This document shows positions 7,335 through 62,731 of a stretch of DNA of 64,000 nucleotides, piece after piece; the first letter of the stretch is position 1; each line of letters begins with the position of its first letter. Under the pieces are notes generated by a model, which was given only the letters and a program-made list of their open reading frames with translations, did no database searches and was not told the DNA's origin. The position numbers were made by a program, and so were the translations under genes. The stretch comes from Eledone cirrhosa (Eukaryota): contig OZ024748.1 in the NCBI GenBank assembly GCA_964016885.1, positions 2,666,001 to 2,730,000 on the forward strand, given 5' to 3'.

Positions 7335-7490
7335 CATATATATTTATATATAAATCAGGATGGATTCAGTTTGAAACAAGTTAGATCATTACTCAATAGA
7401 GTACTTGATACTAGGGGTAGTAGTGTATATTATAAAGAATCAGGACCCATACGGCTGAGCTCTTGCCGTTTGGGCCCCGACACTTTATAA
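7335..7490 (-). mobile_element. Diverged PLE-derived family A fragment
   Basis: agagtacttgatactaggggtag...caggacccatacggctgagctcttgccgttt matches the family A left arms at 52770-52850. Confidence 0.7.
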
Positions 7491-8099
7491 TATATATATA
7501 TATATATATATATATATATATATATATATATATATATATATATATATACACATCTCCAATTACACGATTTAAATTGTATATTCGAAAACGTAAAAAATGT
7601 CCTACTCTCAAAGTCTAAGAATTGGTTTACCGTATCACGTTATCAACTTAACGTCATCCGTACGTTTTGTTTTTTTATGAGTTTTGCTAACGAATGGATT
7701 ACATGTGTGTTTTCTTCTTACCCGATGTCCAAGGTAGGAAAAGCATGGCGTCCGACCCTCTACCGATACTACCAATCCACCGCCTAATGTACATATATAA
7801 TGGTACTGTATCTTTTTCTTCATTATGTCGTTCCCTTATTATTTCCCCCCTCTTGATCCGGCACACCTACAGCCAAAGGTGTTCCCGTCGTGACCATCCA
7901 ATCTTATCTTTAGGCACCCCTTTATTTTAAAGACAGTTCGATGTTGATTTGACTACTATTTATAACAAGTTGAGCGATCGCGTAAAAGCGATATTTGTAT
8001 GATCTTATCTAGTGCTTTACTAACCAACACGAGTTTAGTTTGGAAGAGAAAGCCCCACTTCCCAATTTAATCACCCCAAGAAAAACAATAAAGCCATTA

Positions 8100-8278
8100 A
8101 AATACAAGGGTTTACCGAAGAGGGAAAGGACGAGACAGAAACAAAATAATTCAATGAGAGAGATAACGATTGATGTTACTTTTGAATTTTTGCAAATTTT
8201 AGTGGTCAGGAAAGCAAGAAGCCGGAAGAGAATTCCATAGGCGAGATGAGTGAGGGAAGAAACTATCAGAATTTAATT
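8100..8278 (-). mobile_element. 3' end of a CR1/L2/Jockey-type LINE, second copy, inverted
   Basis: Minus strand reads SDSFFPHSSRLWNSLPASCFPDH*NLQKFKSNIN. Homologous to 6944-7107. Confidence 0.8.
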
Positions 8279-8293
8279 TATGGTTACATTTAA

Positions 8294-8503
8294 CCCTTTA
8301 GCATTTGCATTACTCTATATTTACTATAGTATTGTCGTGGCTTTACCTCAGATAATTATCTCACATAATATCGCATCTATGAGATTTTGATATTATTTAT
8401 TTTGAGAACAATACCTTAATGTTGAGCATCCAGTTATGGCAGGTTTGAACAGAAGGATGTGAGAGAATTCTGGCCGGATACGGCCGGTTTAAATGCTAAA
8501 GGG
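8294..8503. mobile_element. piggyBac-type MITE
   Basis: TTAA|ccctttagcattt ... aaatgctaaaggg|TTAA: a 13-bp TIR starting CCC, with a TTAA target duplication. Confidence 0.85.
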
Positions 8504-8930
8504 TTAAGTAACTTCTACTATCAGATGAGTCCAAGCTGCAAATCTGGTACTCCGTTTAAACTCTTAAACTTATGACAATGAGTGGCGGGAAACTCTCTCT
8601 CTATTGTATTATACAATATATGAAATCGAGGAAACATGGAAGTAACTGTGTGGTTGCTTAATCTGTTAGAAATAGCAGCAAAATTCTTTTCAATTCCATT
8701 TTTTATAAAAGGCTTTGAAAGCTGAGAATTAACTACCTTTTATATACCTTGGGGTGAACAATAAGGTTTGCCGTTGAATAATTTTGTTTTATTTGTAAAT
8801 ATTCCCATGGTTGTGTAACAACTTTTCTCATTTGTTTGGTGAAACAGATCTCCAAGAGTTTTGAACAGGTCTTTGAGCTATATTGTAAATATAAACATGC
8901 ATCTATACAACACAGGATAAACAAAATAAA

Positions 8931-9161
8931 GGAATAAGGCTCGCCCCTTATCTCCCTTTGTTGTGGAACTCTTCTTTTGTCATAAATGAGTCTCGAACAC
9001 TTTTTGTTTTTCTTAAGAATTTATTTCTGAAGCAATGACAAAAGAAGTTCTCAGCGCGTCTGTGTCCATGAGTAAGCCATTTGTAAAGTGACGAAAGCGC
9101 TTTGACGTCTAGCAAAGAAGAGTTCCACAACAAAAGGAGATAAGGGGCGAGCCTGTATTCC
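8931..9161. repeat. Fold-back/MITE-like element with ~45-bp inverted ends
   Basis: aggctcgccccttatctccctttgttgtggaactcttcttt pairs with aaagaagagttccacaacaaaaggagataaggggcgagcct. Confidence 0.8.
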
Positions 9162-9569
9162 TCTACAAAAAAATAAAAATTTCAACTCTAAGCAAGCATG
9201 CACAAATACAATAGGAAGGCTCCCGTCAATCATGACCGACTATGTGTTCGCACATAGAATGTTCCTCTTCGAGACACAAGCTTCCTTCTTCACGACATCG
9301 ATTGTCAAAGGCTGATACAGCTTGGTATCAGTGGCAGTGACATCGCAATCCATATATGTATATATATATATATATATATATATATATATATACATACATT
9401 TTGTGATAAAATCCCACTATAGTCAACATTTCTTTTCGTACTTAAAGAGTCGATCAAATAAAGCGCCTGTGAAGTAATGTGAAGTAGTAAGCTCGATTTA
9501 ATCGATTTTTCCCTCTCCTCCCACAAATTTCTGGCCTTATGCCTATATTAGAAGGCCTCACTCTTTCAC

Positions 9570-59910: not shown

Positions 59911-60020
59911 TCAGAGAGTCACTCCGATACTATCAGAGAGTCACTCCGATACTATCAGAGAGTCACTCCGATACTATCAGAGAGTCACTCCGATACTATC
60001 AGAGAGTCACTCCGATACTA
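59911..60020. repeat. 22-bp tandem repeat, 5 perfect copies
   Basis: tcagagagtcactccgatacta starts at 59911, 59933, 59955, 59977 and 59999. Confidence 0.95.
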
Positions 60021-60091
60021 TGGCTTCTTCCGAAGAGTCTTTGCAGTAACGTTACTCGATAGAGTGCGTAGCTCGGAAATCAGAGTCACTC

Positions 60092-60751
60092 CTACGTTTC
60101 CCAGAGACCAATGTGTGTCCATAGGGCAACAATATATATCACCCTCGGTGACCCTCTTCTAGTGTATCCGTGTAGGGGCTCCCACAAGAGCACTGAGTAC
60201 AGTGTCAACTCTGAATGTCGGTAAGCATGTCCAGCTAACCTCAGTCTCCTCTGTGTCACTTTCGAGCTGACTCTTGGGAGACTCCCACACAGCTCTGAGA
60301 TCTTCATCCTCAGTGTATACTGTTTAATGTTCACAGCCATCCTCAGTGTATACTGTTTAATGTTCACAGCCATCCTCAGTGTATACTGTTTAATGTTCAC
60401 AGCCATCCTCAGTGTATACTGTTTAATGTTCACAGCCATCCTCAGTGTATACTGTTTAATGTTCACAGCCATCCTCAGTGTATACTGTTTAATGTTCACA
60501 GCCATCCTCAGTGTATACTGTTTAATGTTCACAGCCATCCTCAGTGTATACTGTTTAATGTTCACAGCCATCCTCAGTGTATACTGTTTAATGTTCACAG
60601 CCATCCTCAGTGTATACTGTTTAATGTTCACAGCCATCCTCAGTGTATACTGTTTAATGTTCACAGCCATCCTCAGTGTATACTGTTTAATGTTCACAGC
60701 CATCCTCAGCATTCTCGTGTAGCACCCATCCACCATGTGAGTGAGTTTCTT
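60092..60751 (-). mobile_element. RTE-type LINE ORF C-terminal remnant with internal 33-bp repeat x12
   Basis: VDGCYTRMLRMAVNI...ELCGSLPRVSSKVTQRRLRLAGHAYRH...LLWEPLHGYTRRGSP is a typical RTE-group post-RT domain. Confidence 0.87.
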
Positions 60752-62194
60752 ATAGATACATAATACACACATCCACACATACACACACATACATACACAC
60801 ACACGCACACATACACACACACACATACACACACAGATACATATACACACATACATACACACAGATACACACATACACATGCATACACACACATGCATAC
60901 ACACACATGCATACACACATGCATACACACACGCATGCATACACACACACACATTCATAAACATATACATACTTACACACATACATACATACACACATGG
61001 TTAGGAAATTACAAGTACAATCCATGAACGGAACAGTAAAAATATGTAAAACATTCCAAAATTCATACATACATATGTACATACGTACATACATATATAT
61101 ATATGTATATATATATATATATACATACATACATAAATACATACATACATATATATATATACATACATATATATACATACATACATATATATATACATAT
61201 ATACATACGTACATAAATACATACATACATAAATACATACATACATAAATACATACATACATATATATATATACATACATATATACATACATACATATAT
61301 ATATATACATATATACATACGTACATAAATACATGCATACATACATACATACATACATACATACATACATACATACATACATACATACATACATACATAC
61401 ATACATACATACATACATACATACATGTGTGTGTGTTACAACTTTATGTTGAAATAATACGCCTATTATACAATAATATACAATATAATATACAATATAA
61501 ATTAACCACCAAAAGTAGAGATTCAATGACATAAGCGGCAGTTACATCAACTCCACTACTAACAGCTAATATGAACACTAATAAACGAGTCATAAAACAA
61601 ACCGTTTTCTCATTTTTGGCTCGCTCAGTGGAAAATTAACTTAATTATTTCATTTATGTGAGAGATTTTAAAGGTCATCAATAGATTTTATTTATGTAGT
61701 TTTTTTTAATTCTTTTTTTCTGGATTTCTTTACATTTTGTTTGCTTTACTGTTTAGTTTTTTGTTTGTTTGTTTTTTTTGGTTGCTGTTTGTTGTTTTTT
61801 TTACGTTTTTACAAATTTTCTCGTGTAGATTTCTTTGTAAGATGTGTTAAAATGTTTTGCCTTTCATTAACGAAATGTTATCGTTTATTAACATTTAATA
61901 ACCTTTTGATAAGCAACTATCTTTCAGTAAACATTTCACCAAACGGCGCCATCTTACAGTAAACATCTCACCCGTAAAACACTGTCTTCAAGTAAACATT
62001 GCTTGATAAGGCGCCATCTTAGAATAAACATAACTTACTTTGAAAACACCTCAAGACGTCTTAGGATAAACATTGACTAATTAAACAATCGCCCTTGGTA
62101 GACAAACCAAACAACAACAACAAGAAAAAAACAAGCACTAACTTAGGTGCATATGGGATATATTCCATAAAGCGACGTCTACGAGTATATAGGA

Positions 62195-62445
62195 CAGACT
62201 CTACCATTAAGGCCAACCGGGCAGCCGCATAGGGCGCAGACCTCAGAGAGGCGTTTTGCTGGACATTATAGGATCATAGCTTTATACAGGGCTGGTGTTC
62301 CTATTAAGGCCAACCATGTAGCCATAGAGGGCGCAGACCTCAGAGAGGCGTTTTGCTGGACATTATAGGATCATAGCTTTATACAGGGCTGATAACTCTA
62401 ACCCATTAAAGCCAACCAAGTAGGTATCGAGGGCGTAGACCTCAA
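62195..62445 (+). repeat. ~100-bp imperfect tandem repeat, about 2.5 copies
   Basis: attaa(g/a)gccaacc...agggcgcagacctca starts at 62206, 62303 and 62405. Confidence 0.85.
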
Positions 62446-62533
62446 AGGAGAGGATCGTGAGAATCCGTTGGATGAAATGCGCGTTCTCGAGGATGGTTTG
62501 ATAATTTGTTGTGGAAAAAACTTTATATATATA

Positions 62534-62731
62534 TAACAGATTAAAGCTTAAGCAAAGAATCGCTGCTTTCACCCTTAACGGGATCTTAACGTTAAGGGTG
62601 AAAGCAGCGATTCTTTGCTTAAACTTGAATCTGTTATTTTAATAAATATTTGCTCTAGGGTTCTTATATATTTGATATATATTTATCCTTATCGAGCCCT
62701 CTTTGGATTTTAGTCTTCACATTTATTACTA
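62534..62731. mobile_element. PLE-derived family C fold-back
   Basis: taagcaaagaatcgctgctttcacccttaacg-ggatcttaa-cgttaagggtGAAAgcagcgattctttgctta. tatcgagccct box. TA flanks. Confidence 0.85.

Follow-up and report, generated by a model that had tools for sequence, protein, structure and literature searches.

A bulged hairpin found at two positions beside the insertion ends of Penelope-like retroelements in Eledone cirrhosa

Template RNAs in which a stem-loop recruits or positions a reverse transcriptase (RT) include hepadnavirus epsilon, the 3' stem-loops of long and short interspersed nuclear elements (LINEs and SINEs) and the telomerase template boundary element. These are single elements, and their likeness to the hairpin pair described here is by analogy only. 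Penelope-like elements (PLEs) are the closest relatives of telomerase, and passages of the PLE literature state that both the choice of start site and the origin of inverted ends with a one-sided tail are open. We analysed a 64,000-nt window of Eledone cirrhosa DNA (the whole stretch studied: assembly GCA_964016885.1, contig OZ024748.1, positions 2,666,001 to 2,730,000, forward strand), in which an initial annotation had pointed to a box, TRTYGAGYRC, shared by several repeat families (A, B, C, E and S). The shared box is genuine, but it is only half of the actual feature, a bulged hairpin. This hairpin occupies two positions, each preceded by a TA; there are two corresponding end sites, and mirror-image insertions carry one end of each type.

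The elements themselves, their hammerhead ribozymes, TA targeting, inverted pseudo-long terminal repeats (pLTRs) and the tail are already known. The Hydra clade comprises PLEs with a C-terminal endonuclease that are generally shorter than 3 kb (Craig et al. 2021, PMC8557442). Arkhipova et al. (2013, PMC3846280) described head-to-head pLTR pairs in which one member carries a tail, the arrangement found here; the relevant passages propose self-priming, possibly on an antisense template, and name no cis signal. The minimal type I PLE hammerheads of Cervera and de la Pena (2014, PMC4209133) share the upstream ribozyme and the U3-A8 core variant of family A; the hairpins here differ in being separate elements ~40-70 nt further downstream. 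For Poseidon PAc in vitro, both target strands are cut and extended, and reverse transcription starts at two internal RNA sites bounding the tail (Frangieh et al. 2024, PMC11167929). Searches of full texts (subscription papers and Repbase notes lie outside their coverage) turned up no account of the hairpin pair, and neither did Rfam, whose covariance models gave no match at E<=1 in seven metagenome loci; the 150 matches listed, of 433 for the window, were driven by microsatellites.

Families B, C and E are physically joined to Hydra-clade open reading frames (ORFs), as found by walking upstream from C (loci L170 and L161), E (L119, L244, L282) and B (L307). Each has a single ORF of 707-731 amino acids with LYRDD and a degenerate GIY-YIG pattern, the layout of an RT with a C-terminal endonuclease, and the three proteins are 40-51% identical to one another. 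Since Pfam and PDB sequence searches with the Hydra ORF proteins gave no match, the RT-endonuclease assignment rests on motifs. The RWK motif (in its RWR form), DKT, the CxCX5C linker, CxxC and CxH are present in all three proteins; a CCHH-like pattern is absent from all three, as is the Neptune-type signature of a CX2-5CxxC linker with a CCHH endonuclease. RW[KR], DKT, the CxCX5C linker, the lack of CCHH, a hammerhead in the pLTR and insertion into (TA)n, the last seen in the families studied, are all shared with the Hydra clade as described (PMC8557442). In contrast, the units here measure 3.3 kb (E), 4.3 kb (C) and 5.3 kb (B) from pLTR to pLTR, with long 3' untranslated regions (UTRs), and so exceed the typical size of less than 3 kb; the passages of that work that treat the clade mention neither the hairpins nor a link between them and ends. 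On these features the window families are best read as ends of Hydra-clade PLEs. Families A and S appear weakly tied to Hydra ORFs, A by one old copy (L053) that follows a Hydra endonuclease at 1.3 kb without an intervening TA run and by a read-through copy with the second hairpin and a short Hydra-like start (L246), S by ORF fragments at only 2 of 30 loci. The families had been thought otherwise unrelated, which is wrong at clade level, where they would be distant members of one Hydra clade. A reading as miniature inverted-repeat or other DNA transposons was dropped because ORF-linked, tandem and variable-length copies appeared, and a Pfam search with GIY-YIG for partner ORFs recovered Neptune-type elements instead of partners.

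The box as one strand of a bulged hairpin

All 12 strings quoted by the initial annotation were found in the window (those on the reverse strand shifted by one base), and nine match TRTYGAGYRC against 1.84 expected, a count reached by none of 100 shuffles. The nine are copies of only four families (A three times, B four times, C and S), so the comparison overstates the significance. Two family E strings read TATCGAGCCC, in which CC replaces RC; they fall outside TRTYGAGYRC yet are true instances. The string near 42888 on the reverse strand (42889..42898) is a look-alike, having no RCTC arm, a TA run upstream, and a hammerhead-like half of the same element on the opposite strand. Every true instance has an RCTC upstream that can base-pair with the GAGY of the box, with a short upper stem and a 2-nt bulge lying between the two. 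The box itself forms the 3' side of this stem-loop, which is built from RCTC, a covarying upper stem of 1-6 bp, the bulge and GAGY-RC.

The first of the two hairpin positions (hairpin 1) is seen in family A (ACTC, upper stem, TC bulge, GAGT-AC) at 15769..15794 and 24027..24052 on the plus strand and 52777..52801 on the minus strand. Family B carries it at 24237..24257 (plus), 33525..33545 (minus) and 42574..42594 (minus), and a B subfamily at 42723..42744 (plus), where the arm finishes in a CA/TA stretch. Further copies belong to family C (55449..55470, minus), to family S (28378..28399, plus) and to family E (62652..62699, plus; 15590..15637, minus), the last with a long upper part and GCTC/GAGC, a compensatory form of ACTC/GAGT. 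The S copy had been listed as a singleton at 28292; it does carry the box, but S is a multicopy family with a canonical hammerhead. Two instances were absent from the first list: a family B hairpin 1 whose box has one substitution (46908..46928, minus), and the same hairpin in a further family (23846..23869, minus).

The box had been placed 20-60 nt ahead of the terminal TA run, and the distances measured in the window are 21-60 nt. An independent positional test used 59 evenly spaced 10-kb genome stretches (590 kb) with 200 scrambled motifs as control. A TA run lay 10-80 nt downstream of 28 of the 40 boxes and upstream of only 3, which bears out the suggested positional enrichment; scrambled motifs had at most 8 with a downstream run, but 6 of 200 reached the raw count of 40. 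The full hairpin descriptor gave 66 matches in the same stretches, of which 47 had a TA run no more than 100 nt away, compared with 16 and 1 in reversed sequence, and its 133 matches over all loci examined formed 28 clusters, 19 of them single. The initial annotation had held that homology throughout the families would reduce the box to residual similarity. With the conserved words removed, the pLTRs of A, B, C and E aligned at shuffle level in five of six family pairs (P 0.12-0.68), the B-E pair giving P 0.03.

It had also been proposed to look for the motif in PLE pLTRs of other molluscs. Relatives in metagenomes and among published sequences do carry the hairpin. An alignment of 3 of our own and 17 database proteins led to 77 metagenome loci, of which the 59 with a match reaching the protein end were analysed; the loci were selected by protein, that is, blind to the motif, and were not de-duplicated. 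Of the 39 upstream regions, 28 contained a hairpin, compared with 1 in the reverse complement and no more than 1 in shuffles; several of the misses look like misplaced starts. Of the 43 downstream regions, 14 contained one, compared with no more than 2 in shuffles. The consensus is GCTC-Y...R-TY-GAGCAC. In the published Hydra consensus sequences (PMC8557442) the hairpin was judged by eye to be clear in three of six (a coral and two sea cucumber sequences, one with both hairpins ahead of the ATG), partial in two and doubtful in one. In the Naiad file accompanying the same work (File S5), 1 of 11 word matches, near part 23, is a perfect hairpin copy that does not lie at an end, reflecting either chance or a wider range.

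The metagenome hairpins, defined by sequence only and reduced from 61 to 40 non-redundant cases, demonstrate the paired structure by covariation. Pairs were counted in scripts rather than by alignment-based structure tools, since MAFFT left the 5' arm unanchored. Watson-Crick pairs were formed at upper position 1 in 38/40 (21.1 in shuffles), at position 2 in 27/38 (10.5) and at position 3 in 20/25 (8.1), with 0 of 5000 shuffles as high at any of them; covariation was weak at position 4 and absent at position 5. The signal persisted with one hairpin per locus (28 loci), and sliding the partners by one base lowered the pairs to 4/39, 12/34 and 7/24 (one mis-assigned case removed). Furthermore, the spacing between the two conserved words ranges from 6 to 36 nt with compensatory pairing.

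Two hairpin positions and the ends of insertions

In read-through copies the stretch from hammerhead to ATG holds two hairpins separated by 55-92 nt, the order being hammerhead, hairpin 1, tail, TA, hairpin 2, ATG. This order was observed in C (partly visible), E, A and a fifth family (L420). Seventeen metagenome loci likewise have two hairpins, spaced 55-83 nt apart, with hairpin 2 standing ~20-75 nt ahead of the ATG. A two-box pattern gave 655 matches versus 43; among the 100 matches listed, family E and one satellite dominate. The box of the initial annotation belongs to hairpin 1, within the known PLE 'tail'. Its placement at the 3' end is mistaken, as it lies in the pLTR on the 5' side of the ORF and not at the 3' end of the transcript, and its placement downstream of the hammerhead is correct, although most window copies retain only the 3' half of the ribozyme.

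The predicted hammerhead upstream of the hairpin is of type I, and many short copies are palindromic, centred in its stem II and holding its 3' half only. The hammerhead core is canonical in B, C and S and of the U3-A8 form in 2 of 3 full A copies; that of family E has one changed base in all copies seen. In non-palindromic E copies (e.g. L119, L124, L244) the second core base is A, and the family is nonetheless abundant.

Inserted copies end at a TA 5-8 nt before hairpin 1 (site 1) or hairpin 2 (site 2). Among aligned ends, 14/46 of family A fall at -8 of hairpin 1 and 19/46 at -6 of hairpin 2; for family C, whose reference holds ~30 TA sites, the figures are 26/58 at -7 of hairpin 1 and 27/58 at -8 of hairpin 2. 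In family E, 7/17 ends lie 5 nt before the hairpin, and in the fifth family, examined afterwards, 5/5 lie 6 nt before hairpin 2. The metagenome hairpins have a TA at -9..-3 of the base in 43/44 cases, with a peak at -6, compared with 19-22 of 42-43 in control windows. Both regions were available at 22 of these loci, and of 11 informative junctions seven fell within 4 nt before the hairpin base, one, placed by eye, at 8 nt, and three elsewhere.

Short head-to-head pairs combine the two end types. Among 39 of 64 pairs that could be classified, 38 joined site 1 with site 2, one had two site-2 ends and none had two site-1 ends. One-of-each pairs made up 22/22 when family A centres selected by the query were left out and 10/10 in the window and unbiased stretches. 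A second classification method found 64 one-of-each, 4 double site-2 and 0 double site-1 cases among 105 pairs. Arm identity is higher within than between insertions (A, 0.97 vs 0.92; C, 0.98 vs 0.94). This rejects, for one-of-each pairs, the idea that arms usually come from different parents, which fits only rare doubly tailed pairs.

The window holds several such insertions. In family C (55390..55848) the left arm is tailed and ends at site 2, and the right arm is tailless and ends at site 1, stopping 7 nt before the expected start of hairpin 1; a complete type I hammerhead lies at 55740..55806 on the plus strand (mirrored on the minus strand at ~55518-55584; stems judged by eye). Family B provides a pair with a site-2 and a site-1 end, centred in hammerhead stem II (33479..33665), and family A provides two, 48121..48320 (site-2 and site-1 ends, box degenerate) and 23926..24104 (site-1 and site-2 ends). 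Two window pairs break the one-of-each rule. Both are doubly tailed and join different families or subfamilies, one being a chimera of a family E and a family A arm (15552..15845) and the other a pair of family B subfamilies (42535..42782). The E/A chimera suggests that two families can act on one target.

Four long insertions (L170, L281, L283, L285) have their site-1 end on the arm with the ORF and a tail on the short inverted arm; one long insertion shows the reverse arrangement. At L170 and L281 the hairpin 1 and tail of the short arm are absent from the ORF-bearing arm, so the short arm cannot be a copy of it.

Predicted priming from paired hairpins and competing explanations

The ends of inserted copies lie a few bases ahead of either hairpin, which makes it likely that the hairpins mark where RNA copying starts. 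We give a probability of about 60% to a reading in which the hairpins dock the RT-endonuclease and set priming at the UA upstream, with one enzyme for each hairpin and target strand. Each hairpin would bind the element's own RT-endonuclease, and the bound protein would place the cut (TA)n target on the UA 5-8 nt upstream, where copying would begin. One transcript would carry two bound enzymes, one on each hairpin, that prime from the two cut target strands, and the resulting complementary DNAs (cDNAs) would be joined head to head where they are self-complementary or share microhomology, often in hammerhead stem II. An arm started at site 2 would then include hairpin 1 in its 'tail', the site-1 arm would lack hairpin 1, and hairpin 2 would never be copied at an end. 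We hold more tentatively, as something short of an even chance, that a single transcript with two docking hairpins loads two RT-endonucleases that prime both cut strands, and that the motif lets distant families share enzymes. If this is true, target-primed reverse transcription with two primers and one template would alone yield the inverted pLTR and the one-sided tail. We infer that the structure forms in sense RNA.

This two-hairpin priming model agrees with PAc, which belongs to another clade with different RNA features. PAc shares with the model two internal starts bounding the tail and the cutting and extension of both strands, and PAc also has a protein-binding RNA near the ORF start and a predicted dimer (PMC11167929, in the sections concerned). 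The PAc starts, in contrast, sit within a single AC-rich stem-loop of the ORF and have no homology to the target, whereas here two like hairpins stand in the 5' UTR, each behind a UA matching the target.

The motif might instead be read in DNA, the endonuclease recognising a single-stranded or cruciform intermediate and cutting a neighbouring TA, so that the insert would be trimmed at one of the two sites. Both end sites are TA, like the target itself; Craig et al. (PMC8557442) ascribe the tail and inverted pLTRs to endonuclease cleavage, and in D. virilis the tail is needed for endonuclease recognition, as cited by Frangieh et al. (PMC11167929). We regard this as unlikely, in that a variable word distance of 6-36 nt with compensatory pairing is ill-suited to duplex recognition, the reading leaves the one-of-each pattern unexplained, and in PAc the RT was shown to start at the tail borders (PMC11167929).

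Slightly less likely again is a snap-back, in which copying starts before hairpin 2 and the cDNA folds back and is copied until hairpin 1 halts the enzyme, so that there is one start and one stop signal. One end of each type, near-identical arms and palindrome centres that often fall within hammerhead stem II would all follow, and self-priming has been proposed for PLE palindromes (PMC3846280). At L170, L281, L283 and L285, however, it is the short arm that is tailed, the long arm with the ORF having the site-1 end, and at L170 and L281 the hairpin 1 and tail of the short arm have no template in the long arm; few long insertions are detailed, and later rearrangement is possible.

We consider it improbable that the hairpins serve as an operator, acting in cis-preference or in the control of translation, or belong to a pLTR promoter, with ends adjoining them merely because protein is parked there. 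The position of hairpin 2 shortly ahead of the ATG and the promoter-like motifs reported in pLTRs (PMC3846280) would suit such a role, which is partly compatible with the docking model. The TA at a fixed offset before each hairpin and the base-precise ends indicate active positioning, and a duplex promoter box is not expected to covary. Residual similarity or chance in AT-rich DNA is refuted to near certainty by the motif-blind and covariation tests: the families share an ancestor and the window matches are repeated copies of four families, but the flanks fail to align, and positional, covariation and cross-species tests all exceed controls.

Several observations weigh against docking and priming at the hairpins. 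The second position in family B holds only a reduced hairpin (a 4-bp stem-loop; a pattern for the canonical second hairpin gave one irrelevant match in this family), and a further family has no recognisable hairpin 2 at its end, yet in both the ends are sharp. Neptune-type elements (30 loci, 17 with a hammerhead core, from few families) had a hairpin before the TA run in 0 of 17 cases, so the hairpin is not needed by all PLEs. An internal AT run causes long ends of family E to be under-called, 25 of the 64 short pairs are unclassifiable, family B arm identity is uninformative (0.971 vs 0.973), L288 shows two site-1 ends 4.2 kb apart that may be two insertions, and L283 and L285 fit snap-back equally well. 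As for the structure, the lower stem is near invariant in the metagenome cases (first pair G-C in 38/40), and its pairing therefore rests on the switch between A-T and G-C among families of the E. cirrhosa genome, a noisy comparison. Lone hairpins fold weakly (z -2.2 to +0.5), and the lower stem is present in the best fold for 5 of 8; folding energy was dropped as support, and the weak values point to stabilisation by protein. G-U pairs outnumber A-C mismatches by only 10 to 3, a weak case for the sense strand. Overall, the cis element supposed by the initial annotation does appear tied to reverse transcription, as a structure occurring twice rather than as a linear box. Nothing in these data, which include no direct test of either, points to an internal promoter or a 3' processing signal.

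A ~25-nt clade-wide motif with base-precise predicted starts makes the start-site question testable by mutation in a kind of in vitro assay that already exists. The hairpin is also diagnostic for Hydra-clade ends, with no fewer than 14,523 tailed ends on a single strand of the genome (forward matches to a tailed-end pattern, against 444 for the reversed pattern, a count inflated by overlaps), and it might serve to load cargo RNA onto a compact RT-endonuclease of 700 amino acids.

Related families and neighbouring features

The family of the L420 locus (L420, L425-L428) is a very young Hydra family, with 40 copies ~100% identical over 231 nt, and has a glycine/asparagine-rich insert between RT and endonuclease. 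Another abundant family (L421-L424) has hairpin 1 and a 611-bp tandem unit; no hammerhead and no recognisable hairpin 2 were found in it. At L246:1240-1760, family A repeats run head to tail through hairpin 2 and eight Hydra-like codons and then back to hammerhead stem II, and a satellite at G000:C1:14.23-14.25 Mb (L222-L243) consists of 58-bp units derived from family A hairpin 1 and the upstream TA site. The family B 3' UTR at L307:3900-6200 contains ~2 kb of TA/TG microsatellite, and an intact LINE ORF of 1209 amino acids, which we take to be RTE-like, sits within a family B element at L303:5999-9625.

In the window, Penelope-type ends with a minimal hammerhead and AATAAA but no hairpin are present at 47902-48015 (minus strand) and 7133-7181. 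A candidate hairpin of a further TA-flanked family lies at 23663-23710 (plus strand), a single copy among the loci examined. Tandem arrays occupy 574-1649 and 60305-60709, with units of 42 bp and 33 bp; the open frame that holds the 33-bp array is presumably a LINE fragment.

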